A DNA stretch of 24,180 nucleotides from Candidatus Altimarinota bacterium (GTDB lineage Bacteria; Patescibacteriota; Gracilibacteria; Absconditabacterales; Absconditicoccaceae). Positions within the stretch are counted from its first letter, which is position 1. Every line of letters begins with the position of its first letter. Made by a program: the position numbers and the translations under genes. Shown in pieces: positions 93 through 24,180 of the stretch. The stretch is taken from assembly GCA_015489035.1 (NCBI GenBank), contig WFMP01000074.1, positions 1 to 24,180 of the forward strand, read 5' to 3'. The notes under the pieces were generated by a model. The model had not been told where the DNA came from. It ran no database searches and saw only the letters and a list, made by a program, of their open reading frames with translations.

Positions 93-680
93 TTATTTCT
101 CCTTATAAAACATATTTTCTTTTTCTGCTTTTTCAAAATATATATCTAAAATTCTATCAAGTCAGAATTCAGAATCTACTTTTGAGTATTGATTTTCTTT
201 TGTTTTTTCTAAATTATAATTCCATTCTCTCCAACCTTTTCAGTTAGCTAAAACATTTTGAATAATAGGATGAGTTTTATCTAAAGAATAAACAAATCTT
301 GCTTCTTTAGAATCTTTTGATTCATATTCTTTAATTAAATCAATTACATTTCATAAAACATTTCAAAATTCTTTTTCTAACTTATCTAAGGCATCTTTTT
401 CTCTTTTTTCTTTAGTTTTTAATCATTCTGTATCAACTACTGCAATCGTATCTCAAGCATATATTTCAACTAAATCATGAATTAAAGCAATTTTAATACA
501 TTTCTCTATATTTAGCTTTGGAAAATCTTCAGCAAAAACAATAACCATCATTGCTAAATGATAACTATGCTCTGCGTCATTTTCTTGTTTTCAATTTTTT
601 AGATAAATTGCTCTATCTATATCTTTCATTTTATCTATTAATTCAATTAATTTCAGTTTATTTCCTAGATTTTTTATCAT
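93..680 (-). CDS. HD-domain phosphohydrolase (YfbR/HDDC2-like 5'-deoxynucleotidase family), 195 aa
   Basis: Open under table 25, ATG 680 to TAA 93. Motifs QENDAEHSYHLAMM, ALIHDLVEIYAGD and ARFVYSLDK are typical of HD_3 proteins. Confidence 0.85.
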
Positions 681-701
681 AATATTTTTTTAATTATAAA
701 A

Positions 702-1973
702 CTAAATAATTTTATCTAAATTTTCATAATCTAAAGTATTAAAATAATCCTTCAAAGTTTGAGCTCTTCTAATTTGTATAACCTCACCATTTTCTTTCAG
801 CAATAATTCCTTTGCTCTTAATTTTGCATTATAATTAAATCCCATAGCATAACCGTGAGCTCAGGCATCATGCAAAACTATATAATCTCAAATTTCAACT
901 TTTGGTAACTTTCTATCTATTGCAAATTTATCATTGTTTTCACATAAAGAACCTGTCACATCATAAGTATAGTCTTTTGAATTATTTTCTTTTCCTAAAA
1001 CTGTTAAATAATGATATGCTCCATACATTCCTGGTCTCATAAAATCTGCCATAGAAGCATTTAATCAAACATATTTTTTATAAGTATCTTTTAAATGGAC
1101 TACTTTTGCAACCAACTGAGCATAAGGTCAAGAAATATTTCTTCATTGCTCCATTACTATATTTAGTGGAATCTTTCTTTTACTATTATCTATCAAACTA
1201 TCATAAACTGTTTTTATTTCTTTTGAAACATATTCTAAATCCACTTCTTTGTCATCTGGATGGTATGGTATTCCTACTCCTCATCATAAATTGATAAAAT
1301 TGAATTCTATTCAAACTTTTTGTTCAATTTCTACAACTAATTCTAAAAGCAATTTAGCAGTTTCTACTAACGAATCTGGATTTAAATCATTTGACATAAC
1401 CATAGTATGAAGTCCAAATTTTTTAGCTCACAGATTTTTTAGTTTTTTATAAGCCTCAAGAATTTGTTTTTTTTTCATTCAGTATTTAGCTTCTGAAGGA
1501 ATTCAAATAATATCATTTCAACCAGTTTTTTCATCTCCTGGATTATATCTACAACAAACATATTCAGTTAATTTTCATACATTTGCCATATAAAAATCTA
1601 TATGAGAAATATCGTCAAAATTTACTATTGCATTTAATTCTTTTGCTTTTTTAAAATCTTCAACTGGTGTATCATTTGAAGTAAACATTATATCAGGTCA
1701 TACATTTCAAACACTTTCTGATAAATATAATTCTCATAAAGAACTACAATCCATTCAACATCATTCTTCTTTCAAAATTTCCAAAATATAAGGATTTGGA
1801 TGAGCCTTTACAGCATAATAGTTCTTAAAATTTGGTACCCAAGAAAATGCTTTATAAACACTTCTTACTTTTTCTCTAAGACCTTTTTCATTAAAAATTA
1901 AAAAAGGAGTTCAAAAATTCTTATCAAGTTTTTTAATATCTTCTAGTGTGTATGGAAGTTTATATCTATTCAT
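702..1973 (-). CDS. lysA: Diaminopimelate decarboxylase (PLP fold III), 423 aa
   Basis: YAVKAHPNP (PLP lysine), MDCSS, CCRYNPG, EAKYGM, GLHTMVMSN, INLGGGVGIPY, EQGRY, RPGMYGAYH, VTGSLCENNDKFA, HDAGAHGYAMGFNYNAKLR. Closely follows the streptococcal/clostridial LysA type as I recall it. Confidence 0.9.
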
Positions 1974-2046
1974 AAATATTTATTAATAATAAATACTATA
2001 ATTTTTAATATTTAAAAAAGTTATTTCAAGGAAAGAATTATCAATT

Positions 2047-3783
2047 TTATTCCAACACCACTCCGTTTTGCAAGTCAACCAATGTTTTGTATATTTTATT
2101 TGTTTTGATAAGATCATTATGTTTTCACTCTCATCAAACTTTTCCATTTTCTAACACTATAATTTTATCTGAATGCATTACTGTTTGGAGTCTATGAGCA
2201 ATTACTATACTTGTTCTTCATTCCATAAGTTCATCAAGTGCTTTTGTAATTTTATGTTCTGAGATACTATCAAGTGCAGAAGTTGGTTCATCAAGTATAA
2301 TTATTTTCGGGTCTTTCAAAAATATCCTAGCTATCGCTAATCTCTGTTTTTCTCATCAACTTAATTTTACTCATTTTTCACCAACTTCAGTATCAAGTCA
2401 TTTTTCTAATTTTTCTATCATATCTACTATCTGTGCTTTCTCCAATGCCTCCCAAATTTTTTCTTCCTTATTTTCTATATTTTCTCCATCAAAAGCATAT
2501 TCCAAATTTTCTCTTATAGTTCCATCAAAAATTCAAGGTTCTTGTGATAAATATCAAATATATTTATATAAACTTTCTATTTTCAAGTCTTTTAAATTTT
2601 GTCAATCTATAAATATTTCTCAACTTTTATAATCATAAAGTCTTAATAAAATCTTTATAATTGTAGATTTTCAATTTCCACTATGACCAACCAATGCATT
2701 TTTCTTTCAATCTAAAAATTCTAAATTTAAATTTTTAAACAATATTTTATCCTTACTATATCAAAAAACTAAATTTCTAATCTTTATTTCTCATTTTTTA
2801 AATACAAAATCTTTTGTTCCATCTTTTATTTCAGTTGGCGTATTCAAGAAATTTTTTAATTTTTTATAAACTTCTAAATCTTCTGTAATTCTATTTATTT
2901 CTCTGATTGCAGTTTCTATAGGATTCCACAAAGTCCATAAATATCAAATTATCATAACTATCATAGCAATAGTCATCTCTCATTTTAATACCAAACTTCA
3001 CAAAAAGAAATATGTACTAAATTCTAAAATCTTTACAAAAAAGAATAAACTAGAATAAAGTATAACTTGATGTTTTCTTATATTTGATCTATATTTTGGT
3101 AAATCTTTTAATATTTGTTTTGAATAATTTAATTCTTGATTTGTTTTTCAAAAAATTTTTATAAGCAAAAATTCATTTATTATTTTTATAATTAATCTGC
3201 TATCTTTTTCATATATTTCATTCTCTGCTTTTACATATTTTTTTATTTTTCTCTTAATATAAGAATTAAGAGAATACATTAAAATAAGAAAAATAATTAA
3301 TATAAACAAAAATAAAGGAAGAAAATAAACAAAAATTATTGATATAACTATAATTTTAAAAACTGTATTTGTCATTATTTCAATAATACCAAGAAAAATA
3401 TTTGCTTGGGCTTGAACTCATCTATTGAATCTGGCAATAAGTTTTCAACTTCATTCATCTATAATTTGACTATAATTTTTCTCTAAAAGTTGTTTCTTAT
3501 AATTTTGATTTATATTTTTTAAATAGACAGCTCGTAGTTTTGATTGTAATATAGATGCTACTACCCAAAACAAGGAAGCCAAAACAACAAAAAATATTCA
3601 CACACTAAACCAAAATAACAAATCATGATAACTTCATTTAATTTCTAAAATATGTATTAATTCTTTACTTATCTGCGGAAAATACAAAAAAATAGATTCA
3701 GTTAAAAATAGAATCAAAACTGTGATATAAAATTCTTTTTTTACAATTTTATAACTTTTTAATATACTTATTATTTCTTTCAT
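2047..3783 (-). CDS. ABC exporter, fused TMD+NBD half-transporter (MsbA/Sav1866-like), 578 aa
   Basis: Hydrophobic N-terminal half. Walker A GHSGNGKST, Q-loop YLSQEP, signature LSGGEKQR (both Gly encoded by TGA, 2353-2358), Walker [14 protein letters not shown]-loop IAHRL. Confidence 0.93.
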
Positions 3784-3788
3784 AAAAT

Positions 3789-4514
3789 TTAATCTTTCTT
3801 AATAAAATTCACATCAATTATATTACCCTCTTCAACTATTTCTCAGCCAAAGTTTTTATAATTAAATATATTTTTTTCACAAACATTTTTTACCAATTTT
3901 CATTTTATTTTTTTAACTCAATGACTAATCTTTTTTCAATCTGGTTTAAGAAAATTTATATTTATTATTTTTATTCAAGCATTTAAGATCTTCTCTAACT
4001 TCTTTTTGTGTCTTGAACAATTAGTTCACAGTCAAATAAGTTTTGCATAATTTATTGGCAGTAAATTTACTATATAATCAGGTTTTAAATCAATAATGGT
4101 ATCTGGGATTTTATCCCACCAAAATTTATATAAATCAGTTTTCTCAAGTGGTAATTTATAGTTTCATATTTTATCAAGTGGTTTCAAAATTCCATACATT
4201 CAAGAAAAGATTAAGAAATTATCTTCAAAAAACTTTTTTCATTGTTCATTCATTCAATTATAATCAATAGCATTATACATCACACCAGAATATCTATTTA
4301 TTGCTTCTAAAAAATATTTCTGCTTTCATTCACACAAAGTTTCGTTTAGTAAAAATCCTTCTTCAAATCTTTTTCAAGTACATTTTAAATTTTTTTCAGA
4401 AACAGAAGTTGCAATTTTACAAGGTTTTCCAAATTTAAAACTTAATTTCTCTTCTTTATAATTTCATCAATTAGTTTTTCCTTCACTTGGAGGAAGTAGA
4501 AATATTATTTTCAT
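3789..4514 (-). CDS. yaaA: YaaA/DUF328 peroxide-stress DNA-binding protein, 241 aa
   Basis: LLPPSEGK N-terminus, AINRYSGVMYNAID, LIFSGMYGILKPLDKIGNYKL, VNLLP, and KISHGVKKIKGKLVK (equivalent of the YaaA 'S..AKKARG' motif). Confidence 0.85.
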
Positions 4515-4516
4515 AA

Positions 4517-4771
4517 TTATTTTTTAAAATTATCTACTAAATCTAATTTTTGTTGTCTTTTTAGTTTTTTAATTTCAATTTCTCTCTTTGTTGCTTTACT
4601 TCTATTCTCAGATTTTTCAAAATAAATAAGTTCTACAGGTTGTCTAGCCTTCGTATATTTTGCTCATCCTAAAATATCTCCATTATGCTGTTTTAACCTT
4701 TTTTCTAAATTAGTTGTAATTCAAGTATAAAGTGTATTATCAGAACATTTTAAAACATAAACAAAATACAT
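4517..4771 (-). CDS. GIY-YIG endonuclease, UPF0213 (YhbQ/YazA-like), 84 aa
   Basis: [30 protein letters not shown]...GAKYTKARQPVELIYFE...A.KRE..IKKL. Confidence 0.92.
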
Positions 4772-4782
4772 AAATAAGTTAT

Positions 4783-4810
4783 TTGACAAAAATAATAAAA
4801 ACTGTATAAT
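4783..4810 (+). promoter_or_regulatory. Sigma70-type promoter for cutA
   Basis: Perfect TTGACA (4783-4788), 16-nt spacer, TATAAT (4805-4810), about 50 nt upstream of the cutA ATG. Confidence 0.75.
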
Positions 4811-4820
4811 TTAATAACAA
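4792..4820 (-). promoter_or_regulatory. Candidate sigma70 promoter for the GIY-YIG/yaaA/ABC operon
   Basis: Minus strand TTGTTA (4820-4815), 17-nt spacer, TATTAT (4797-4792). The AT-rich background lowers specificity. Confidence 0.45.
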
Positions 4821-4859
4821 CTAAGAGTAGTTAAATTTAATTAAATAAAAATAAACAAA

Positions 4860-5306
4860 ATGAAAGAATATTCAACAAGAAAGTATATTAAATATGTTCA
4901 AATAAACATAACTTGTCCAAACATAGAAACAGCTGACAAAATATCTACAGCTTTGGTGAATAGAAAATTAGTAAGTTGTGTTCAAATTACAGATACAATT
5001 AAATCAGTTTATCTATGGAACTGAAAGATAGAAAAAAACCACGAACTTGTTCTAACAGCAAAAACGAGAGCAAGGTATTTCTTAACTATTGAAAGAACAG
5101 TAAAAGAATTACATCCATACACAACACCAGAAATTATTGCTCTACCTATAATTAAATGATCAAATGAATATTTAAGATGGATAGATGAAAGTCTATGATT
5201 AAAAACTGTGGATTTTGAAAATAATACTGTCATTAAAGAAGAAAAAGAAAAAGAAAAAGAAAAAGAAAAAGAAAATAATAGTAAAAAAACTAAAATTAAA
5301 ATTTAA
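4860..5306 (+). CDS. cutA: Divalent-cation tolerance protein CutA with charged C-terminal extension, 148 aa
   Basis: ITCPNIETADKISTALVNRKLVSCVQI, SVYLWNGKIE, E..L.AKT, ELHPYTTPEII.LPI..G..EYLRWI. Confidence 0.9.
5241..5275 (+). repeat. In-frame hexanucleotide tandem repeat (GAAAAA)x5 plus a partial unit, encoding (EK)n
   Basis: gaaaaa gaaaaa gaaaaa gaaaaa gaaaaa gaaaa, read directly in the cutA 3' end. Confidence 0.95.
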
Positions 5307-5315
5307 AAAAATACG

Positions 5316-5954
5316 TTAAGAGAGAAATTCTCTCTTTTTTTTAATATTATATTTTTCTATATCTTTAAGAAATTTATAAATAGGTTCAGAAATCATATTT
5401 TTAATACTTAATAAACCTTTTTCATAATATATTTCTATTATCTTCGAACTACTTAACTCATAACTTGATTGTCATAATTCAATAACTTCTAAATCGAGAC
5501 TAGATGATTTTAAAATATAATTATAATCTCAAACAGGAAATCATTTTCTTTTGAAAAAATAAATTTTTTTAAATTTAAAAGAAGATATTTTACTAAGTCT
5601 AATAGCATTTAAAATTTTAAGGAATTGATCACTTCATAAAGCTATCCCGTCAAAATCTTCTCATATAATTTCATTTCTTGTATCATTTCAAACCGAAAAA
5701 TTTGGATATAATATATTCAGCATAAAAAATACATTTTGAATACCCAAAAAATTTTCTTTCATATTTAATTTCCTTAGATTTTCGTTAAATTTTCAATCAT
5801 TATTTTTATCTAAAAATTTTTTTATGATTTTATCTCATAATTTTATAGAAAAATATATATCATTATTAGTTTTTGAAGCTAATTTTTCTATAAATTCTTC
5901 ATGTCAAAGATGTAAAGGTCAAAATGAACCAGGTACATAAATAGGCTTTTTCAT
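5316..5954 (-). CDS. HxGH cytidylyltransferase-superfamily nucleotidyltransferase, NadD-like, 212 aa
   Basis: GSFGPLHLGH (HxGH), IALGSDQF (cf. NadD IIGAD), FKRKG, ELSSSKII (cf. ISST.IR). Substrate not established. Confidence 0.7.
5318..5342 (+). terminator. Intrinsic terminator after cutA (overlaps the 3' end of the convergent gene)
   Basis: Inverted repeat AAGAGAGAA/TTCTCTCTT followed by a T run. Confidence 0.7.
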
Positions 5955-5956
5955 AA

Positions 5957-6463
5957 TTAATATTTTACTAAACTAATAATCTTTTTATTTCAAAACTTAT
6001 TTCTTCCATTTAAAAAATCTAATTCAATTACAAAACTTAGACTATCTATTTTTCAACCTAATTTTTCGACCAAATCACAAGCTGCTTTTGCACTTCCACC
6101 GGTTGCAAGCAAATCATCAATTATTGCGACTTTATCTCATTTTTTAATTGCTGTTTTTTGCATTTCAAAAGTGTTACTTCCATATTCCAAATCATAAGAG
6201 ATATTCTCACATTCTCATGGAAGTTTTCATTTCTTTCTAAGCATAACAAAAGGTTTTTTCATTTCATATGCTAAAATTGAACCAAATATAAAACCTCTTG
6301 CATCAAGACCTACAATTTTATCTATGTCTCAAATATTTTGTTTAAATTGTTCTATTGTAAATTTCAAAGCATCATAATTTTGCAAAATAGGACTCATATC
6401 TTTAAAACTTATCCCTTCTTTTGGGAAATCTTGAATTTCTGCAATATAATTTTTTAAGTTCAT
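5957..6463 (-). CDS. apt: Adenine phosphoribosyltransferase, 168 aa
   Basis: IQDFPKEGISFKDMSPIL, GLDARGFIFG, MLRKKGKLPG, YDLEYG, PRPP loop IIDDLLATGGS. Confidence 0.96.
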
Positions 6464-6473
6464 AATATATAAT

Positions 6474-8621
6474 TTATAATCCAAAATTTTTAATAACTAC
6501 TCCAGGAAAATACCATTGAATAATTTGTTTATAATTTAATCATTTTCTAGCAAGATATTCTGCTCATTTTCAGCTTAACCCTACTCCATGTCAGTAAAAT
6601 TTATTACATTTTCACAAATCTATGTTATTTACCAAATATGGAGTATCCACCCAACCAAATTTCTGTGCAGCTGACAATGTAAAGCCAGGAGAACAACTAA
6701 AATAAGGTAAAATAGGAATATAATTATCATAAAGTAAATATTGATTTTTTGTAGCCTTAAGTGCCTTCGACCATAACTTTGAAGTTTTCTCATATCCAGC
6801 TCCGACATATTTTTGAAATATTCTTGGATCATCTATAGCATTATAAACAGCTTGTTTAGGTATTGAAGGTTGAATATTTCACTTATCCAAATAAAATAAT
6901 AAATAAGTTTTTGCTAATAAAGCCATTACTTTTATTTTTTCAAAAGGCATCTGATCATCACTTTCTGCAATTCAAGCAAGATAATCATTTATTTTCAACA
7001 TATTAATTACAATAAATTTCCTTTCATATTTTCATCACATTCCTTTTATCAATCCTTTTTTAATAGCAATATTTCATTTAAAACTATTCCAAGGAATTCA
7101 AGCATAAGACTTTCTATGGTAATTTTTAAATATTATTATTCAACCATTACTTAAGATAGTTAAAGAATGAGTAGTTATAGATTTATTTTTAAACCAAACT
7201 ATTAAATTAGAAAATTTATCTACTTCAAAAGATTTTAAATTTTTAAAAATTCATTTACTTGTAATTATTGTACAATTATTTGTACATTCTATGTTATAAT
7301 ATTTTAATTTAGACAATTCATAAAGCAATACTTTCACAGGTTTTTTTATTAAAGTAGAAATCTGATTAAAATAAATTTTATGTTTAATCTTTATTATTTT
7401 ATGGGTATTTACTTTTCATCATAGATATTTCAAAGCTTTTTGTTTCATTAAATATCTTATATTATCCATAAAAATAGGATAAACTTGTATTTTATAATTA
7501 TATTTTGATGAAGATGCAGTTATCCATTTATTTCAAAAAACAAAATATCATCTCCTCTGTAAAGTAATTGTATTTCATTTACAAGTAATTTCTAATCAAA
7601 CTATATTTGAATCACATTTTTGTAAATCTTTTACATTTTTTAATTTAATTACAATTTTATTAGTTAATGAAAATTTTTTTCAAATATAAATAGTTTTATT
7701 TTGTTTAACAAAAGATATATTTTTAATTCTTGGGTTTTCTATTCTTGATTTATAATTTTTTAATCTTAAATAAACTTGTCTTCTAATATAAGGCAAATCA
7801 GCATACAAATATTTACCTGGACAATCAGTATGTCCAGTGTCTCTATGTCAAACTATAGAAAAATGTGTAACATTTTGAATATAAGGAGGTTTCTGGAAAG
7901 ATTCTTTATGATAAACAACTTTATTGTATGGATTAATATTATATTTTCTGGCCAAAGCTGTTGATAATTTTATTAATGAAGCTAACTGCTTTTTTGTAGG
8001 TTTTTCTATATTAAAATTTCAAATCAGAGCTATTCAAATAGAAGGAGGATTATTATAAGAAGAATTCGCACCTACAACTCAAGCTCAACCTTGCCTTCAT
8101 TCGTAAATATTTCAAAATTGATCTATTAAAAAATTATATCAAATATCTCACCATTTCCTAATAATCGCATGATAATAATAAACTCACCTAATATATTTTT
8201 CTATTGCTTGTTTAGTCTTAAATCTCTTATAATCAGCAGCAGTATGATGTATTATTATATCTGTTTTATGGAATTTATATCACAAAGGCCACCAAAGTTT
8301 CTTTCAATTTAAATTATAAACTACTTTATTAAGCTTAATTTGATTTTTCCAATGAGATAACATATACTTTTCTCTATCTTTTTCTATAGTCCTTTCTTTT
8401 AGATTTCGCCAATATTTTTTAGGATCTTCGGTTATCCTTTTATCTAAATCTTTATTTTGTTTAATAATATCTTTATAAATTTTAAAATCTGAAAATAAAT
8501 ACTTATTATTTGCACCCCATTCCTGTCTTGTAATAATTTTTATTCATGGAAGATTCCGCTGAATTGCAAAAGTTGAGGATACGAACAAAAAAAATAACAA
8601 ACAACCTAATAATTTTTTCAT
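6474..8621 (-). CDS. Secreted multidomain peptidoglycan hydrolase: Amidase_2/PGRP-like Zn amidase + SpoIID/LytB-like domain, 715 aa
   Basis: One frame, ATG 8621 to TAA 6474. Signal peptide MKKLLGCLLFFLFVSSTFA. Amidase motifs IITRQEWGA, IIIHHTA, WGDIGYNFLID.FGNIYEGR, VGHRD...TDCPG. SpoIID motifs INDYLAGIAE, KVMALLAKTY, FQKYVG, PYFSCSPGFT, YGHGVGLSGKGAEYLARKGLNYKQIIQWYFPG. Confidence 0.85.
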
Positions 8622-8723
8622 AAAATATTTTTTTTAAATAAATATGTTCAATGTATACAAAATTTAAAAAAATTTTCAACAATAAAAATTATATTCAACT
8701 TAAGTTCAAGCTTAAAAAAGTTT

Positions 8724-9098
8724 CTACCATCTTACTATTTCATATTTGATTTTCTTATCTTTTATAATTTTCTCTATTTGTTTTTCATTCAGATTTTGTC
8801 TAGATTTACCAGTTTTAATCTCCAAAAAAACTATTTGTTTTAAATTTCAATTTGATAATCCATCAAAGATAACATAATCTACTCATTTTCACAAAAAATT
8901 CATATCTTTGGGATGATAGTTTATATCTTGCATAAAAGGAGCTAAAGTTTCGTAACTTTCTCATAAAATAACAGAACGAGATTTTTTTACAGATTTTTGT
9001 CTCTCTTTTCTTAACTCAGTATATTTAATTATTTTTCAAATAAAATATCACAAAAAAAATGAAACTATCACTATTCATCACCAATATATTTTTTCCAT
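8724..9098 (-). CDS. Endonuclease related to archaeal Holliday-junction resolvase (PD-(D/E)xK) with N-terminal TM helix, 124 aa
   Basis: Hydrophobic N-terminus, then KSRSVILGESYETLAPF, FLGKGVDYVIFDGL, IVFLEIKTGKS..N.NEKQI. Confidence 0.8.
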
Positions 9099-9149
9099 AA
9101 TATTTACTTGAATTTATTTACTAAAACATTATTATACTCCTCACTTTAT

Positions 9150-9226
9150 GGTGGTTGTAGTTCAACTGGCAGAGCCCTGGTTTGTGGTACCAGTCGTTGC
9201 GGGTTCAAGTCCCGTCAGCCACCCCA
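9150..9226 (+). tRNA. tRNA-His(GTG), G-1 and CCA encoded
   Basis: Acceptor GTGGTTG/CAGCCAC, G-1:C73, anticodon arm CTGGT-TTGTGGT-ACCAG, T-loop TTCAAGT. Confidence 0.95.
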
Positions 9227-9238
9227 TTTAAGTTATTT

Positions 9239-9312
9239 GGCACCGTACCAGAGTGGTCTAATGGAGGGGCCTGCAAAGCCTTCTTTCACCGGTTCGAATC
9301 CGGTCGGTGCCT
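9239..9312 (+). tRNA. tRNA-Cys(GCA)
   Basis: Acceptor GGCACCG/CGGTGCC, U73, anticodon arm GGGGC-CTGCAAA-GCCTT, T arm ACCGG-TTCGAAT-CCGGT. Confidence 0.93.
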
Positions 9313-9352
9313 TGATCAAAAATCCACAAATTAAAAATATCATAAAATAATT

Positions 9353-9379
9353 AAGAGTAGTAAAATCTACTCTTTTTTT
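9353..9379 (+). terminator. Intrinsic terminator after the tRNA pair (possibly bidirectional for the pilin genes)
   Basis: AAGAGTAG-taaaat-CTACTCTT followed by a T run. Confidence 0.8.
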
Positions 9380-9385
9380 ATTTAA

Positions 9386-9856
9386 CTATTTAACTACATG
9401 TTGAGCATAAATAGAAATTACCCACATAGAGATTAACCAACTTACTCATATTGTAATAATTGCTATTATAGCCATTTTAATAAATTTTCCTCATTTTTTA
9501 ATTCATTCATCAGTTTTCCCAGTAAATACCATAGAGAAACCATAAACAAGGATCATAAAAGCTATAAAAGCTAAAATACTAAGAAAATAATTTATAAATT
9601 TTGAAATATAATAAATGGCAGGATTACCTTCACTACGAAAATCAGTTCATAAAAAACTTTTAGATAACTGATCTAAAGTAGAATTTTTATTGTTTGGAAT
9701 TATAATATCTTTCATAGAATCATTACTATTAATTGAAACTGTTATATGATGACTATCTGTAGATAAAGTGTATGGAAAATTTGCAGCATTAACTATAAAT
9801 AAACTTAAAAATAATCATAAAAAACTAACAATAAATATTTTTATTAAATTACTCAT
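9386..9856 (-). CDS. CPR-type pilin-like membrane protein (TrbC/VirB2-like), 156 aa
   Basis: Signal-like N-terminus ending VNA. C-terminal two-helix hairpin INYFLSILAFIAFMILVYGFSMVFTGKTDEGIKKGGKFIKMAIIAIITIGVSWLI. Confidence 0.65.
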
Positions 9857-10308
9857 GTATTTAAATTTACAAAATAAAATATTAAATTAATAAAAAGATA
9901 AGAAGCTCAAATTCAAACCAGAGCTAATATATAATTTCTTAAATTTACAAAAGCTTCTTTTTTCTTTCATTCATCTCATGCAGATGTTATCATAACAATT
10001 CCATCTTTTATAATTAAAATAATAACTATCAATCATAAAAATCATAAAAAATAATTTATCCATAAACTTAAATAATCAATAAAATCTTTTTTATGATCAT
10101 TTGTTCATGCCGCTATTCATTGCACTCATTGAACAGCTGAGGTTGTTCAATTTCTTAATGGATTATTTATATCATTTGATTTAATAACATTAGTTTGATT
10201 TTGTGTATAAATAGTTTGTGTATCACTATCCCACATATTATTAGCAAATACAAAAATACCAATAAAATTAATAAATGCCAGCAAAAATATAAATAAAGAT
10301 TTTTTCAT
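9844..10308 (-). CDS. CPR-type pilin-like membrane protein (TrbC/VirB2-like), 154 aa
   Basis: Signal-like N-terminus ending VFA. INYFLGFLGLIVIILIIKDGIVMITSAGDEGKKKEAFVNLRNYILALVGIGASYLFINLI. Overlaps the next gene by 13 nt. Confidence 0.7.
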
Positions 10309-10369
10309 TTTAAATACATAATTTATAAAATAATTGTCGTAATTTTACAAAAATATCTTCATTTTACAA

Positions 10370-10939
10370 CTAAAATAATTTTTCTCTTAATTCTTTAAGT
10401 TGTTCCAAATCTTTCCTAATTATATCAATTTTACTAGGAGAATATAAAGCAACTGCCGGATGATATGATGGTAATAAATAAATATCTTCATCAAATGTAT
10501 GTCAATTAAATTCATTCAATTTTAGTATTTTTCCTCTATCCTGTGAAATTTTCAAGTTTGACATAAAAAAGTTCATACTAAATCTTCATAAAGTTACTAT
10601 TATTTTAAACTTTCATTCTATAATTTGTTCCAATAAGTACGGAGAACAAGCTTGTATTTCCTCTTTCTTTGGATCTCTATTTTCAGGTGGACGACACTTT
10701 ACAATATTTGTAATATAATAATCCTCCTGCCTATAAAATCATATTCATTCTAATATTTTCGTAAGTACTTTCCCACTTCTTCATACAAAAGGTTTTCATT
10801 GAATATCCTCTTCAGCACCAGGTGCCTCTCAAATAAATAAAATTTTTGAATTAAAATTCCCATCTCACATAATCGGAGAATTACAAGTTTTATATAATTC
10901 ACATTTTTTACATCATTTAATTATATTCTCTAAATCCAT
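10370..10939 (-). CDS. Uracil-DNA glycosylase family 4 (4Fe-4S), 189 aa
   Basis: C..C.L...C, GEAPGAEEDIQGKPFVGRSG, YITNIVKCRPPENRDP..EEI.AC, LGRFS, YHPA. Confidence 0.93.
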
Positions 10940-10995
10940 AATTTCTTTTATAAACTAAACAAATATAAAATAACAAAAAAAGAAATTAAATCAAA

Positions 10996-11023
10996 CAAAA
11001 AAACACAGACCCTCCGTCTGTGC
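10996..11023 (-). terminator. Intrinsic terminator downstream of rpoC
   Basis: Minus strand CACAGAC-GGAGG-GTCTGTG followed by TTTTTTT, about 10 nt after the rpoC stop. Confidence 0.85.
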
Positions 11024-11031
11024 CTTTGATA

Positions 11032-14856
<3,825 letters not shown>

Positions 14857-14881
14857 AAATATATCATTTTAAAGTATAAAA

Positions 14882-18436
<3,555 letters not shown>

Positions 18437-18459
18437 AATATTGTAAAAATATATTAAAT

Positions 18460-18489
18460 AAAAAAGACCTCACTAAAATTAAGTAAGGT
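18460..18489 (-). terminator. Terminator/attenuator-like hairpin directly upstream of rpoB
   Basis: Minus strand ACCTTACT-TAATTTT-AGTGAGGT (8 bp, one G-U) followed by CTTTTTT, ending 23 nt before the rpoB ATG. Confidence 0.6.
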
Positions 18490-18560
18490 AATAAATATTA
18501 AATACTACTAATTTTTAATATTTTTTCGAACATAAAATTTCTTAATAATTTATAATAAAA

Positions 18561-18716
18561 TTATTTTTTTACAACAGCAAGAGATTTTCTTCATTTTAAT
18601 AATCTTCTTTTCAAAACTCTCCTTCAAGATTTTGTAGATTTTCTAACAAGAAAACCATGAGTAGTACTTCTTTTTCTCCATCTATATTTTCTAATTCTAT
18701 TTAACTTTCCTGGCAT
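18561..18716 (-). CDS. rpmH: 50S ribosomal protein bL34, 51 aa
   Basis: [51 protein letters not shown] (HGF..R..T..GR.VL.RR..KGR..L). Confidence 0.9.
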
Positions 18717-18739
18717 AATTGTCTTTTAATATAATTAAA

Positions 18740-18937
18740 TTATTTTATATATGGTATTAATCCCAATTCTCTAGAATTAATAATTGCTTTTCTAACTCTT
18801 TTTTGGTATTTAACAGATAATTTAGTAAATTTTCTCATTTTAATATTACCAAATCTATTCAAAAAATGTTTCAATAATAGAACTGATTTCCAGTTTATTA
18901 GATGTTCATTATTCTTTGTAAAGATAGATTTATTCAT
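18740..18937 (-). CDS. rpsR: 30S ribosomal protein bS18 (divergent, no Zn-ribbon Cys), 65 aa
   Basis: INWKSVLLLKHFLNRFGNI...YQKRVRKAIINSRELGLIPY; position after rpsF-ssb. Confidence 0.9.
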   Translation of the reverse strand: MNKSIFTKNNEHLINWKSVLLLKHFLNRFGNIKMRKFTKLSVKYQKRVRKAIINSRELGLIPYIK

Positions 18938-18962
18938 TTTAAACTATAATAAAGATATAAAT

Positions 18963-19334
18963 TTATTCAATATTTTTCTCAACATCAGAATTCTCAGTGT
19001 ATTTTCTATTTAACAACAATAAATCATTAACTACAACTTCAGTAAGAATTCTTGCTCTTTCTTCTCATTCTATTTCAACTTTTCTATTATGTAAGTATCA
19101 TTTAATATACACTAAATCTCATTTGTGTAAAAGATTAACAGCTCTCTCTGCTAAATTTCCCCAACATACTAATTTATGGAATTGAGATTCTTCTCTTTTT
19201 TCTCCATCATTAGTAGTCCAAGTTCTTTTAGTAGCAAGATTAAACACTGTTAAACTTTGAGAAGTTTGTGTTTCTTTTAATAATGGATCATTAGCAATCC
19301 ATCATAATAATGTTACTTCATTTAATGTTCTCAT
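18963..19334 (-). CDS. ssb: Single-stranded DNA-binding protein (OB fold only), 123 aa
   Basis: LNEVTLLGWIANDP, FNLATKRTW, QFHKLVCWGNLAE, KGDLVYIKGYLHNR, TEVVVNDL; lies between rpsF and rpsR. Confidence 0.95.
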
Positions 19335-19360
19335 ATTGTTTACTTAATAAGTAAATAACA

Positions 19361-19753
19361 CTAAGCTTTTATTTCATTAAATATTCATGGTTTTGACAAA
19401 TCAGAGAAATCTATATTTTCTAATTCTTTTTCCATTTCTTTAAACTTTAAAAACTTTTGTGTATCTTTCATTTTAAATACTTTATATCTTACTACAGGTC
19501 AAACTATACCTAACTTTCTTTTAAATTCTTTCATAGAATCTCATTCAAGTTCTGTATGTAAAGAATAATAATAAGGATTTGATGAAGATCAAATTGAATA
19601 TAATGCTTCCATATAACCTATATCGTCTCTATCTAATACTTTTCATCCAAAATCTGAAATTAAAGTTTCAACTTCTTTTTTTGTTTCATCTATTTTATCT
19701 TGAGCATTTGCAGCATCAAATAATACTACAAGTTCATATTTTCATAAAGCCAT
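19361..19753 (-). CDS. rpsF: 30S ribosomal protein bS6, 130 aa
   Basis: KYELVVLFD, GGKVLDRDDIG...Y.I, YY..H.E, VVRY; synteny with ssb-rpsR. Confidence 0.88.
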
Positions 19754-19776
19754 TTTAAATAATTTATTAATTAAAG

Positions 19777-19813
19777 TAACCTTCAAAGGTTAACCTTACT
19801 AAACAGGTAAGGC
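19777..19813 (-). promoter_or_regulatory. Structured leader upstream of rpsF (two tandem hairpins)
   Basis: Minus strand GCCTTAC-CTGTTTA-GTAAGGT then TAACCT-TTGA-AGGTTA. A candidate promoter TTGGAT-N16-TATAAT (19848-19821) lies just upstream. Confidence 0.5.
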
Positions 19814-19821
19814 ACTGTATA

Positions 19822-20637
19822 TTATATAGAATATCTTATAACATCCAATAATTCATAATCTTCAGGGATAAGAGATTTCATTTTTTTTGATTCATCTCTA
19901 ATCCAAGATTGTTCTAATAATACAAGTTGAGAAAAATATTTGTTTGTTTTTCATTTAACTATATTATCAGCAATATTTGCAGGTTTTCAAGAAGCTATAA
20001 CTTCCTCTTTAAATTCTGCTACTTGTTTATCCATAACATCTTGTGGAATATCTTCCATTTTAATATATTCTGGATTCATTGCAACAGCTTGTAAAGCTAA
20101 TTCTTTAGAAACAGAATCTACTTCTGAATTATTAGAATTATACAAAACAACTCATACTACTTTATTTCCTGGGTGATTATAAATATAAGATTGTTTTCAA
20201 GATATTTTAAAAACATCTAACAATTTTACATTTTCTCATACTACAGAAACTGTTTCAGAAACTATATCGTTCAATTCTTTAAGATTTTCTTCAGATAATT
20301 TAGAAATATCAGATACATTTTCTACATCTAAAGATAACAATTTATCTAATATTTTATCAGCAAATTCTATAAATTGTTCATTTTTAGCTACAAAATCTGT
20401 TTCACAAGCTAATTTTACTCATACAACGATTCAATTTTCAGATTTTACTCTTACAACTCATTCATTAGTATCTCTATCAGCTTTCTTAGCAGCTTTGATA
20501 GCTCATGCTTTCTTTAAAACTTCTTGAGCTAAATCTAAATCTCAATTTGCTTCAATTAATGCAGATTTACAATCTTTTAAAGGAGCATTTGTAATTCATC
20601 TTAACTTTTTTAATAATGCAATATCTACTTTTGCCAT
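19822..20637 (-). CDS. tsf: Translation elongation factor Ts, 271 aa
   Basis: LLKKLRGITNAPLKDCKSALIEANGDLDLAQEVLKKAG..KAAKKADR.TNEG, LACETDFVAKN, GENVK, YIYNH.GNKV, LQAVAMNP. Confidence 0.97.
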
Positions 20638-20667
20638 ATTATTAATACAATTAATATAATAAATATA

Positions 20668-21096
20668 TTATTTAACTTTAAATTTAACATCAAATAATTC
20701 TAATATCCAATTACCTATTCACACAAAAAATGGTGCTAAAATTTTTTCTTTTCAATTTATCTCTATAACATATTTTCATTCCCAAGCCTGTTTTACAAAT
20801 ATAATCCACAAAACAAATATAGCTATAAACAATAATATTGGAATTATTCTTATAAATGGAATAAAAATAAATACCATAGATATGATAAAAAACAGAAAAA
20901 AGACAGTCCACCATCAAATAGATTGTCTTAAGTGAAATATTTCATATTTTGTAATTTCTTTTTTACTAAGAAATATAACTATTCATAATAAGAAATAACA
21001 TACTAACACTTTTTTTCTCTCTGATTCTGATGGTATATAATTATTTTGTAACATTTCTGTTACTCATAAATCTAGACTATCTTTATTTTCTGTCAT
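20668..21096 (-). CDS. Integral membrane protein, DUF4870/Tic20-like, 142 aa
   Basis: Three hydrophobic segments with YEIFHLRQSIGWW and AWEGKY...PFFVGIG. These resemble the 'FHAKQGL...A..G....P' pattern of DUF4870 proteins. Confidence 0.6.
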
Positions 21097-21102
21097 AAAA
21101 GA

Positions 21103-21780
21103 TTATTTTAATAAATAATTCAATATATACATAATACTTTCATACGAATTAGTATTAGCTACAATTAAATTATTTGTAGATAACCATCTAGACAAATCAG
21201 TATTAGCAATAGCTATATACTCAATTTTTGCCTTTTCTAATTCTTTAATAACTCAAGTATTATATTCAGCATCAACAACAATTACTAAATCAGGAACTTT
21301 TCTCAAATTAGTTACACCTTTATAAACTAATTCAAATTTAGCCAAATTTCTTTTAGTAATTAATTGTTCTTTTTTAGTTAACTTAGTAAATTTATCTGAA
21401 GAAATAAGCTTACTAAGACTATTCATTGCTCCAATACTTTTTGAAAAAGTTGAAAAATTTGTAAATAATCAACTTGGAACTTTATTATTTAAGAACAATG
21501 TATTTGAAGAATTACATATATCTTCAACATCATCTCTAAATACTTCTTTATCCAAAACTAATAATACATTTTTTCAAGCTTCCTTAAGTTTTTTGATTTT
21601 TTCTTTAGCAGACAACAACATTTCTGCTGTAACAGAAGGATCAATAACCATTTCTTTATTAACAACACCTAATGTACTTTTTTCAGTAATCTTAGGGAAG
21701 AATTTAGATCTAGTAGTTCAAATATAAACTTTATTTGAAATTAATCATTCTATTAATGCCTCCTTATTTAATTCAGACAT
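21103..21780 (-). CDS. rpsB: 30S ribosomal protein uS2 (highly divergent), 225 aa
   Basis: GLFTNFSTF (cf. GMLTNW.T), LTKKEQ, YKGVTNLRKVPDLVIVVD, IKE..K..I..IAIANTD, ANTNS..SI; upstream of tsf. Confidence 0.88.
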
Positions 21781-21810
21781 ATAAATTTATATTAAATTTT
21801 TAAATTCTAC

Positions 21811-22188
21811 TTATTTTAAATTAACTACTGCACCAGCTTCTTCTAGTTTAGCCTTTAATTCATCAGCTTCTTCAGCAGAAATTTTTTCTTTAATTACAGC
21901 AGGTACTTCAGCTATTTTTTCTTTAGCTTCTTTTAAACCTAATCATAAAGCTTCTTTTATAGCTTTAATTACAGCTATTTTTTTATCACCAATTTCAGCA
22001 ACTTCTACAGTAACTTTATCATCACCAGCTTCTTCAGCTCAAGCAGCAGCAGGACCAGCAACTACAGCAGCTGCAGCAGCAGAAACACCAAATTCTTCTT
22101 CTAATGCCTTAACTAAATCTGCTAATTCAACAACTGTTAATTCCTTTACCAAATCCATAATTTTTTGACTATTTTCTGTTAATGCCAT
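21811..22188 (-). CDS. rplL: 50S ribosomal protein bL12 (L7/L12), 125 aa
   Basis: [62 protein letters not shown]. Confidence 0.98.
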
Positions 22189-22217
22189 TTTAATTTTCTA
22201 ATAATAAATATAAATAA

Positions 22218-22754
22218 TTATTTTTGTTCCTTAATTTGATCTAATACCCTAACAAATCATGATAATAAGTTAGAATTAACTGTAACAAATCAAGTAATAG
22301 GGTATTTAACCATATACATAAACTTTCAAATAAGTTCTTCTTTTGACGGTAATGTAGCTAATACTGATACATAATCAGATTCTTGCCAGTTTCATTCAAA
22401 CCATCCTCCTAAGTACTCCAATTTAGAAAGAGCTTTTTCTTTTTTCCATATCTTCTTAAATTCCTCTACTATTTTTAAAGTTGAAATTCAATCATCTTGT
22501 AAAAACAATACAGATACAGAAGATGGTAACTTAGATAAGTCTACATTATATCATAGACTTTCAATTGCTCTAGAAAAAACTTTTTTCTTAACAACTTTAT
22601 AAGTAGCTCAATTATTTCTAAATTGTCTTCTCATCGCAACTGATTCTCATACAGGAATTGCGTCATATCACAAAACAACCATATTAAGAGAATCTTTAAT
22701 TAGTTGCTCATACTCACTAACTAATCTAATTTTATCTTTTTTAGTAAGAGCCAT
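22218..22754 (-). CDS. rplJ: 50S ribosomal protein uL10, 178 aa
   Basis: MALTKKDK...V, MRRQFR, YKVVKKKVF.RA, GGWFEG, LATLPSKEELIGK; directly upstream of rplL. Confidence 0.95.
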
Positions 22755-22771
22755 AACAAAGATTTAAAAAT

Positions 22772-22857
22772 AAAAAAATTCTCCATATCGGAGATAATAC
22801 TATAAAAAATATATAATACATCTCCCTTAGGATTTACAAATTACCTAAGATCTTCAA
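22772..22857 (-). promoter_or_regulatory. L10-leader-like RNA with downstream attenuator hairpin
   Basis: Minus strand GAAGAT-CTTAGG...CCTAAG-GGAGAT, resembling the Firmicutes L10 leader GAAGAC-AGUAGG...CCUAC-CGAGGU. It is followed by TCTCC-GATAT-GGAGA and ATTTTTTT. Confidence 0.7.
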
Positions 22858-22875
22858 TTTAATTTTAATAACAAA

Positions 22876-22949
22876 TGGGCCAGGTAGGACTCGAACCTAC
22901 GACCCAACGGTTATGAGCCGTTTGCTCTAACCAACTGAGCTACTAGCCC
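22876..22949 (-). tRNA. tRNA-Ile2(CAT) (lysidine type; elongator Met not excluded)
   Basis: GGGCTAG/CTGGCCC acceptor, anticodon arm AACGG-CTCATAA-CCGTT; body resembles Bacillus tRNA-Ile(CAU) as recalled. Confidence 0.85.
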
Positions 22950-22954
22950 TTAAA

Positions 22955-23031
22955 TGGTGGGTAATACAGGACTCGAACCTGTGACCCTCTGCTTGTAAGG
23001 CAGATGCTCTCGCCAACTGAGCTAATTACCC
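22955..23031 (-). tRNA. tRNA-Val(TAC), CCA encoded
   Basis: GGGTAAT/ATTACCC, arm TCTGC-CTTACAA-GCAGA. Confidence 0.96.
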
Positions 23032-23040
23032 ATATAAATA

Positions 23041-23112
23041 CAACCCTACGGGGAATCGAACCCCGATCTTCAGGATGAAAACCTGATATCCTAGCCGTTA
23101 GACGATAGGGTC
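23041..23112 (-). tRNA. tRNA-Glu(TTC)
   Basis: GACCCTA/TAGGGTT, arm TCAGG-TTTTCAT-CCTGA. Confidence 0.94.
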
Positions 23113-23120
23113 AAATGACT

Positions 23121-23192
23121 AGCCAGATGCGAGACTTGAACTCGCGACCCTTCGCTTACAAGGCGAATGCTCTACCACTGAGCTAATCTGGC
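23121..23192 (-). tRNA. tRNA-Thr(TGT)
   Basis: GCCAGAT/ATCTGGC, arm TTCGC-CTTGTAA-GCGAA. Confidence 0.95.
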
Positions 23193-23199
23193 AAAATGA

Positions 23200-23276
23200 T
23201 GGCGGGACTGACGAGACTCGAACTCGCGACCTCCTGCGTGACAGGCAGGCGTTCTAGCCAGCTGAACTACAGCCCC
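23200..23276 (-). tRNA. tRNA-Asp(GTC), CCA encoded
   Basis: GGGGCTG/CAGTCCC, G73, arm CCTGC-CTGTCAC-GCAGG. Confidence 0.96.
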
Positions 23277-23289
23277 ACAAAAGCGAAAG

Positions 23290-23547
23290 TTAAGAAACCT
23301 TCTTTGCTAATCTAGATTTTTTTCTACTTGCTGTTTGTTTTTTTAATAATCATTGTCTAACAGCTTTATCTATTTTTGAATATGTATCTGATAATATTAC
23401 ATTTAATTCTTTAGATTCTGTACCATCATCAACATTCTTCAAAAAAGATTTAACACTTTTTTTCATTGCTAACTTCACAACAAGATTAACTTCGTAATTT
23501 TTTAAAGCTCTTTTTGCTGCTTTTTTAGCAGATTTTTTAATAGCCAT
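23290..23547 (-). CDS. rpsT: 30S ribosomal protein bS20, 85 aa
   Basis: MAIKKSAKKAAKRALKNYEVN...MKKSVK...YSKIDKAVRQ-G(TGA)-LLKKQTASRKKSRLAKKVS. The conserved C-terminal helix appears only if TGA is read through. Confidence 0.95.
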
Positions 23548-23582
23548 TTAGTATATTTCAAATATTAAATTATTTAATCAAA

Positions 23583-23655
23583 CTCCGAGAGAGGGACTCG
23601 AACCCACGACCCAGTGGTTAACAGCCACTTGCTCTACCAGCTGAGCTATCTCGGA
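23583..23655 (-). tRNA. tRNA-Asn(GTT)
   Basis: TCCGAGA/TCTCGGA (U1:A72), G73, arm AGTGG-CTGTTAA-CCACT. Confidence 0.95.
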
Positions 23656-23665
23656 ATACCCCTGT

Positions 23666-23693
23666 AGTATAAAAAATACAAAGAAAAAATCAA
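23666..23693 (-). promoter_or_regulatory. Candidate internal promoter upstream of tRNA-Asn/rpsT
   Basis: Minus strand TTGATT (23693-23688), 16-nt spacer, TATACT (23671-23666), in the longest tRNA-tRNA spacer of the array. Confidence 0.45.
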
Positions 23694-23699
23694 GTCAAA

Positions 23700-23781
23700 T
23701 ACCGAGAGTGGGACTTGAACCCACACACTATAAAGCACCTGGTTCTAAGCCAGACGTGTCTACCAATTCCACCACCTCGGC
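23700..23781 (-). tRNA. tRNA-Leu(TAG)
   Basis: GCCGAGG/TCTCGGT, arm TCTGG-CTTAGAA-CCAGG, long variable arm. Confidence 0.94.
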
Positions 23782-23785
23782 ACAA

Positions 23786-23857
23786 TTGCGGGGGTAGGAA
23801 TTGAACCTACGATCTCCGGGTTATGAGCCCAGCGAGATACCACTTCTCCACCCCGCA
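23786..23857 (-). tRNA. Initiator tRNA-fMet(CAT)
   Basis: Anticodon stem with three consecutive G-C pairs (GGG-CTCATAA-CCC) and A11:U24; acceptor TGCGGGG/CCCCGCA. Confidence 0.93.
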
Positions 23858-23866
23858 TTAAACGAA

Positions 23867-23939
23867 CTGGGATGGTAGGACTCGAACCTACGAATACTGG
23901 ATTCAAAGTCCAGTGCCTTACCAGCTTGGCGACATCCCA
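23867..23939 (-). tRNA. tRNA-Gln(TTG)
   Basis: TGGGATG/CATCCCA (U1:A72), arm CTGGA-CTTTGAA-TCCAG. Confidence 0.95.
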
Positions 23940-23945
23940 ACAAAA

Positions 23946-24019
23946 AGCGGATGACGAGACTCGAACTCGCAACATTCTGCTTGGAAGGCAGATATTCTAG
24001 CCAATTGAACTACATCCGC
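23946..24019 (-). tRNA. tRNA-Gly(TCC)
   Basis: GCGGATG/CATCCGC, U73, arm TCTGC-CTTCCAA-GCAGA. Confidence 0.96.
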
Positions 24020-24104
24020 ATAATTTATTTTTTAAAGTTTAATATATATAGAAGGTAAAAGGCCGAAAAATTTGCTTGGTTATATTTCTTTTATTTGCAC
24101 TTGT

Positions 24105-24180
24105 TAGATAAGTAATCCATCTCCACGTTCTCGTAGAGATACCTTGTTACGACTTCACCCCAGTCATCAATTTTCTCCTC
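24105..24180 (-). rRNA. rrs: 16S rRNA, 3'-terminal ~76 nt (rest outside window)
   Basis: Minus strand TGATGACTGGGGTGAAGTCGTAACAAGGTA (universal 1492 region), helix 45, then GGAT. The 3' end is placed by alignment to E. coli 1542. Confidence 0.95.

Follow-up and report, generated by a model that had tools for sequence, protein, structure and literature searches.

The window, i.e. the whole stretch of DNA that was analysed (24,180 bp), corresponds to the complete contig C74 of MAG G000 from an uncultured hydrothermal-vent SR1 (Absconditabacteria) bacterium. It ends inside a 16S rRNA gene, with the 5′ side of the 16S match missing (Table 1). A cluster of tRNA genes lies downstream of the 16S rRNA gene, and no 23S rRNA gene was found there. 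The spacer that leads from the 16S rRNA gene to the tRNA cluster contains blocks that are conserved in the two related genomes G061 and G062, namely AAGUGC directly after the 16S rRNA tail and CCUUUUACCUUCUAUAU further on. All long open reading frames (ORFs) in the window require TGA as a sense codon (genetic code table 25). Matches of the window proteins to Pfam domains begin at residues 4-14, and from this we conclude that the start codons in the window were placed correctly. An ORF of 142 aa between the genes for uS2 and EF-Ts (window 20668-21096, minus strand) had no Pfam match. One of the tRNA-Met genes (window 23786-23857, minus strand) is initiator-like, and its acceptor ends UGCGGGG...CCCCGCA form a U1:A72 pair. 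Bacterial initiator tRNAs usually have a C1xA72 mismatch.

Table 1. Features of the window with their coordinates, strand and the basis of their assignment.
Feature	Coordinates	Strand	Basis
16S rRNA 3′ tail GGAUUACUUAUCUA in place of the anti-Shine-Dalgarno sequence GGAUCACCUCCUUA	24105..24118	-	Rfam alignment
Conserved 16S rRNA 3′ minor domain (1492 region and helix 45), truncated by the contig end	24119..24180	-	RF00177 positions 1458-1519, posterior probability maximal throughout
Spacer from 16S rRNA to tRNA-Gly, 85 nt	24020..24104	-	Blocks conserved in G061 and G062
Ten tRNA genes (Gly, Gln, Met, Leu, Asn, Asp, Thr, Glu, Val, Met) and bS20	22876..24019	-	ARAGORN, Rfam; Pfam for bS20
24 protein genes with leaders: bS20, uL10, bL12, uS2, EF-Ts, bS6, SSB, bS18, bL34, RpoB, RpoC and others	93..23583	- except 4860-5306 (+)	ORFs, Pfam

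Window positions 24180 to 24105 on the minus strand aligned to positions 1458-1533 of the bacterial SSU model of Rfam (RF00177) with 51.7 bits. In this alignment the tail GGAUUACUUAUCUA is set opposite the consensus GGAUcACCUCCUUu, and two of the five positions of the anti-Shine-Dalgarno (anti-SD) core CCUCC survive. The initial annotation had reported the loss of this core at 24118 to 24105; its letters and coordinates proved exact, and CCUCC was absent in every copy seen. CCUCC was also not found in the 85-nt spacer 3′ of the tail. The 16S rRNA gene is present in MAG G000 with 76 nt only, and no further pieces of 16S or 23S rRNA were found in this MAG besides the end in the window. Further copies were available from relatives. 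The sister genome G061 (JALUXR01, a MAG labelled Candidatus Gracilibacteria) has an RpoB that is 93% identical to that of the window, and the RpoB of G062 is 74% identical. G061 encodes two 16S rRNA 3′ ends on different contigs, each with the tail and the spacer of the window, and these two copies diverge only near the equivalent of window position 24030. In G062 both 16S rRNA ends read GGAUCACUGAUCUAG and are likewise without CCUCC.

The window stretch was furthermore found in hydrothermal-vent metagenomes from at least seven studies. Logan contigs from three independent vent studies span positions 24041-24165 with an unchanged tail free of variant letters, and over this range they differ from the window only by a C>T in the spacer (24088). 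In two runs the depth of the contig with the tail was 1017-1025 compared to 540-583 for the flank on the tRNA side (about twofold), and loose ends of Logan contigs branch at 24030. The doubled depth of the tail together with the branching points to two rRNA copies with identical tails, and these data indicate that the organism would have two 16S rRNA copies sharing tail and spacer up to approximately 24030. RNA run X17 did not cover 24014-24123.

For the analysis of start sites ORFs of at least 100 aa were called with TAA and TAG as stops and the first ATG as start. MAG G000 (1.25 Mb on 267 contigs, rated 88.6% complete) turned out to be a mixture, as in-frame TGA rates per contig were bimodal. 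Set A, to which the window belongs, consists of 137 contigs (772 kb, 24.0% GC) with about 40 TGA per 1000 codons, and set B of 105 contigs (412 kb, 28.5% GC) with 0-4 TGA per 1000 codons. The CheckM contamination of 4.6% does not reveal this mixture. TGA-free genes of at least 200 codons occurred on no set A contig, and only 11 of 275 set B proteins had a homologue in set A. Set B carries its own tRNA cluster (on contig C58) and accessory-looking genes such as those for dynamin-like GTPases and a type I restriction-modification (R-M) specificity subunit. The largest set B contig had no DNA match in the sister genomes, which with 0.8-0.9 Mb are about the size of set A. Set B was treated as foreign to the chromosome, i.e. 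as a contaminant, phage or plasmid. On the TGA-sense contig C262 of the same MAG a tRNA with the anticodon UCA was identified at about position 1749; it was labelled SeC by ARAGORN and is presumably a tRNA-Gly that reads UGA under code 25.

In the unsplit MAG, 16.5% of the genes had an SD-like 4-mer, with a positional peak of AAGGA/AGGA at -14 to -8. This signal follows GC content and TGA use of the contigs and was traced entirely to the TGA-free contigs, and the figure of 16.5% is misleading as a property of the window organism. Set B starts were preceded by an SD-like 4-mer at -18 to -5 in 128 of 273 cases (47%), compared to 20-24 in controls, and therefore provide an internal positive control that the method detects SD sites where they are present. 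Before set A starts the 4-mers AGGA, GGAG, GAGG and AAGG were depleted, with occurrences at -18 to -5 in 8 of 549 cases (1.5%) versus 32-33 in two upstream control windows. None of the 24 window genes had any of them at -20 to -5. The canonical anti-SD sequence reached a mean duplex energy of -0.22 kcal/mol on set A leaders versus -2.00 kcal/mol in the control region. Moreover, G makes up 3-5% of the letters from -24 to -1 in set A, so that no C/U-rich rRNA partner anywhere could find a purine-G-rich site. SD-free starts, as claimed in the initial annotation, were thus found throughout the window, and genome-wide the claim is true only after the bin has been split. An enrichment of SD motifs across the genome, which would have spoken against it, was seen only in set B.

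How far the loss of the core extends was surveyed by pattern in 401 genomes of the class, with CCUCC being sought at the canonical distance. Among the 275 genomes with a 16S rRNA end, 99 keep CCUCC and about 64% are without it at the canonical place. In the GTDB family of the window CCUCC was found in 1 of 44 genomes with a 16S rRNA end. Other families are mostly without it as well (0/13, 0/17, 0/3, 9/55 and 3/31), and further families of the class keep it (15/20, 6/7, 9/9, 5/5, 5/6, 8/11 and 8/10). The initial annotation had regarded the loss of the anti-SD as rare; it is the normal state in the SR1 family and common in the class. The co-occurrence of the loss with recoding (code 25), also put forward there, is supported. 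Full 16S rRNA genes from 15 genomes of the same family have degenerate tails that are nearly all different, and 10 of 14 class members outside the family keep CCUCC. Altogether about 20 decayed tail variants are spread over about 25 genera of the window's family. Across 17 genomes of the family, two to three letters occur in each of the five core columns, and conservation reaches at least 80% in the flanks (helix 45, GAYCAY and the CUA that comes next). Variable core columns between conserved flanks would be consistent with relaxed selection on the core. The window tail UACUUAUCUAAC differs from the common family form CACCAUCCUAAC by C>U changes and a swap of AU to UA, and it appears to be an AT-shifted derivative, as expected of unconstrained letters at 24% GC.

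Start sites of relatives were scanned over 400 kb from each of six genomes. The family genomes G016, G024 and G031 had SD-like motifs before 2.5-4.7% of starts, below their own controls. No SD enrichment was found in the 400-kb scan of G057, which belongs to another code-25 family and has the tail UCUCC, and G052 (tail CCUCU) showed a slight excess of GGAG/GAGG (25 versus 9). G038 keeps CCUCC (tail CACCUCCUUU), and its SD-like motifs were not enriched (36 versus 44 and 37 in controls). This suggests that the use of SD sites was given up before the tail decayed, with the order of events resting on this one CCUCC-keeper, whose starts are less certain at 46% GC. When GGAG-N5-10-ATG was compared to the reversed pattern in 61 genomes, SD-free genomes already reached ratios of 1.6-2.0; this control is not neutral, and the comparison was discarded.

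The leaders of set A are A/U-rich and little structured, as the initial annotation had described. The start window folds with -2.11 kcal/mol versus -4.00 kcal/mol inside genes (p = 2e-35). Off-frame AUG is under-represented from -30 to +14, with an observed/expected ratio for ATG of 0.57-0.9 near starts versus 1.1-1.3 in gene bodies, and 24% of the genes have AAA as their second codon. The preference for A at -3 that had been noted in the window is real (p about 1e-7) but modest, with 60% versus 48% at neighbouring positions, and A is also raised at -10 and -11. The leaders are, however, not featureless A/U tracts, and here the initial annotation had missed a position-locked element. At least three Ts occur within -30 to -14 in 93% of set A genes versus 40-52% in other windows, and the word TTTA, with its A at -28 to -14, was found in 490 of 544 set A genes (90%) compared to 28-30% in control windows of equal size and 28-34% over all controls. 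In 422 of these 490 genes the A lies at -17 to -22. When leaders are aligned on TTTA, the next five positions are occupied by A or T only, followed by T, A and A at 61%, 62% and 72%. The leader pattern can thus be written as UUUA-N5-UAA, about 9 nt and AUG, with UAA near -12. In the window UUUA (A at -28 to -14) precedes 23 of the 24 genes (e.g. 23548-23583, 22755-22790 and 18437-18472). It occurs regardless of how far away the upstream gene lies, and operon-internal genes with spacers of up to 30 nt have it just as often. To our knowledge, based on the literature searched, this element has not been described.

The UUUA element is conserved in genomes of the SR1 family from 24% to 41% GC. Motif and control frequencies were 81% versus 23% in G016, 69% versus 15% in G024 and 51% versus 5% in G031 (41% GC), and G057, G052, G038 and set B showed the element weakly or not at all. 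We considered whether it might be an element of sigma-70 promoters and rejected this. The tRNA genes of set A have classical TTGAnn-N17-TATAAT promoters without UUUA-N5-UAA (e.g. upstream of tRNA-His at window 9151 and on contigs C112, C158, C143 and C97). Before protein genes, matches to TTGAnn-N16-18-TAnnnT numbered 188 versus 74 in reversed sequence, and the ends of their -10 hexamers peak at 30-39 nt before the ATG. UUUA starts 7-13 nt after the -10 hexamer, i.e. downstream of it at the 5′ end of the predicted transcript, and of the 441 genes lacking a promoter match, 391 carry it as well. Hexamers at this distance predict leaders of about 23-32 nt, which implies that leaders would be uniform and about 25 nt long rather than absent. 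We also rejected a pairing between UUUA/UAA and CUAA, the conserved end of the tail, as the complement would be UUAG and a G follows UUUA in only 11% of the genes; in addition, G016, G024 and G031 have the motif and no UAAA in their tails. Judged from its position and distribution, UUUA is best described as a putative signal at the level of the mRNA.

Several other explanations for the altered tail and the SD-free starts were weighed. The tail might be an artefact or belong to a non-functional copy, that is a chimera at the contig end or a pseudogene, with the working 16S rRNA retaining CCUCC. The contig does stop 62 nt past the tail, MAG G000 is without other rRNA, and the bin is demonstrably mixed. 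On the other hand, the tail shares its contig with 24 kb of unique code-25 sequence, occurs identically twice in G061 and as a related CCUCC-less form twice in G062, and reappears in the contigs of three independent studies at a depth of about 1000 with zero variant letters. A second 16S copy with CCUCC or an assembly error had been named in the initial annotation as findings that would overturn its claim; all ends in G061 and G062 are CCUCC-less, and the same tail is present at both G061 ends and in the contigs of the three studies. As CCUCC is also missing in 43 of 44 family genomes, we consider an artefact extremely improbable. Only slightly less remote is the idea that pairing-based initiation persists with a co-evolved new SD, in which leaders would have acquired a new partner of the tail UUACUUAUCUAA, for instance UAAGUAA or UUAGAUAA. 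In the window, (U)AAGUAA does precede the AUG of two genes (ssb at 19334 and a gene at 9098) by 5-6 nt, and TTAGATA occurs 10 times at -22 to -3 in set A leaders versus 3-4 times in controls. However, AAGTAA was found 10 times versus 12-13 times in control windows and ranks in the middle among its own permutations, and TAAGTAA 4 times versus 5-6 times. The TTAGATA cases lie at -22 to -18 inside the U-rich element, where TTAGTT (18) and TTAGAA (15) are about as frequent. None of AAGUAA, UAAGUAA and UUAGAUA is therefore enriched as a complement of the tail. The duplex energies agree with this. Paired with positions -22 to -1 of set A, the real tail gave a mean of -1.61 kcal/mol, equal to that of shuffled tails (-1.58 +/- 0.32 kcal/mol; z = -0.1), and it binds the upstream control region better (-2.70 kcal/mol). 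Relatives with different tails moreover share the same leader architecture, and a co-evolved new SD is already largely refuted.

Leaderless initiation, with most mRNAs beginning at the start codon or beside it and promoter elements accounting for the upstream signals, appears unlikely, though less so than a new pairing. The peaks of T, A and A at -12/-11/-10 might represent the beginning of a -10 box. There is, however, no T peak at -7, and the predicted canonical hexamers end too far upstream (30-39 nt before the ATG). The tRNA promoters, TTGA-N17-TATAAT and not UUUA-N5-UAA, also argue against this reading, as does the presence of UUUA in operon-internal genes and in most genes without a promoter match.

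A number of ribosomal proteins, translation factors and readers of the 16S rRNA tail were searched for. bS1 (358 aa, about four S1 domains) and IF3 are encoded on TGA-using contigs of MAG G000. With regard to the platform proteins, which the initial annotation had taken as diverged, bS6, bS18 and uS2 are present in the window. The four-domain S1 proteins of Firmicutes have no known role in driving initiation. A search for bS21 (PF01165) gave no match in any of 36 family genomes or in MAG G000 at its completeness of 88.6%, and 12 of the 24 genomes searched from other families encode it. Full-length Era was likewise found in 0 of 36 family genomes, where only paralogues of the GTPase domain match, and its full-length form was detected only in five genomes, all of other families. 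The KH domain of Era reads GAUCA plus CCUCC (PMC10582724). YbeY was not found in MAG G000, in agreement with a 2026 preprint.

We therefore propose, with a probability of roughly 80%, that the 16S rRNA tail decayed because the SR1 (Absconditabacterales) lineage no longer initiates translation by SD/anti-SD pairing. Once mRNAs were recruited without pairing, selection on the CCUCC core would, as judged from sequence variation, have lapsed. With two other readers of the tail, bS21 and Era, also not found in the family, the core may have been free to drift. Ribosomes most likely load on the nearly structure-free, G-poor leaders of about 25 nt, probably with help of the four-domain bS1, and the start might then be fixed by the initiator tRNA and IF3. 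The candidate positive signal would consist of UUUA with its A at -17 to -22, UAA near -12 and A at -3. UUUA would most likely be read by bS1 or a platform protein, for which it could serve as a docking site where the mRNA leaves the 30S subunit; as the second choice it could be a processing site, at which cleavage would leave all cistrons with the same short leader. That the lost SD was replaced in the SR1 family by such a protein-read or processing-linked leader code of UUUA and UAA near -12, lacking in standard-code relatives, is a tentative proposal, which we hold for plausible but rather less than an even bet. If set B belonged to the same cell (as plasmid, phage or islands), its AAGGA sites would be without a reader, which the proposed decay of SD/anti-SD pairing leaves unexplained. 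The initial annotation had suggested a distinct translation-initiation system; such a system may exist, and no new pairing partner for the altered tail was found. Its interpretation is partly right, in that there is no SD system here and initiation is lineage-specific.

The loss of the anti-SD itself is already published for SR1, to which the window adds one more genus. SR1 RAAC1 (2% SD) and SR1 Aalborg_AAW-1 (7% SD) are listed as 'SD-scarce, lacking CCUCC' in a PLoS One study from 2024 (PMC10783764). The tail given there for Aalborg_AAW-1, AATCACCTTTGTACA, equals that of G024 exactly, and the tail of RAAC1, GACCACCACCCTAAA, is identical to those of four family genomes. These matches identify the window's family as SR1/Absconditabacterales. 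Both published organisms share with the window the GTDB family, the absence of CCUCC and code 25, with SD genes at 2-7% there versus 1.5% here; the window differs by its genus and its own, more AT-shifted tail. With no CCUCC, 1.5% SD and the variant in all copies and close relatives, the window organism falls in class iv of that study (SD-scarce, lacking CCUCC). The parts of the study considered here give no account of the family-wide diversity of tails, the missing bS21 and Era, the leader architecture or UUUA.

Similarities also exist to other SD-poor bacteria. Bacteroidia have mRNAs without SD and with AUG depletion near starts, and their initiation is tuned by low structure and by A at -3 (Baez et al. 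2019, PMC6847099; Jha et al. 2021, PMC7797042); SD-less mRNAs, AUG depletion, low structure and A at -3 were all found here. Bacteroidia mostly keep the anti-SD, hidden in a pocket of bS21, bS18 and bS6, whereas in the window organism the canonical anti-SD is decayed and bS21 was not found, and a position-locked UUUA at about -20 does not appear in the account given for Bacteroidia. Anti-SD loss in a subgroup of Parcubacteria and the frequent absence of bS21 in Gracilibacteria and Absconditabacteria were reported by Tsurumaki et al. 2022 (PMC9297842). These Parcubacteria resemble the window organism as CPR members with reduced ribosomes and a lost anti-SD motif. They belong to a different class, however, and here promoters are predicted about 30-39 nt before the ATG, with leaders of about 25 nt. 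Reduced insect endosymbionts, among them Carsonella, Hodgkinia and Nasuia (PMC10783764), are similarly AT-rich with a degraded anti-SD and few SD sites, and their genomes are tiny. In contrast, the loss described here is ancient and family-wide, and it occurs in an environmental (vent) lineage with a conserved alternative leader motif.

Two results deserve follow-up, the UUUA element in the leaders and the clean separation of SD-bearing contigs by genetic code. UUUA at about -20 is a testable candidate for the marking of starts in a recoded, SD-less bacterium, and it would also improve the prediction of gene starts in SR1 genomes. Code 25 provides a clean internal control, since SD-bearing genes in this bin are found only on TGA-free contigs, and it illustrates that 'SD genes without an anti-SD reader' can stem from binning. 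The approximately 20 decayed tails between conserved flanks furthermore represent a natural experiment on the non-SD constraints that act on the 16S rRNA 3′ end. With regard to these flanks, the loop region of helix 45 (window 24129-24133) reads CGAGAACG in MAG G000, G061 and G062 versus CGGGAACG in other family members, a G-to-A change in the window's genus that adjoins the two dimethylated adenines.
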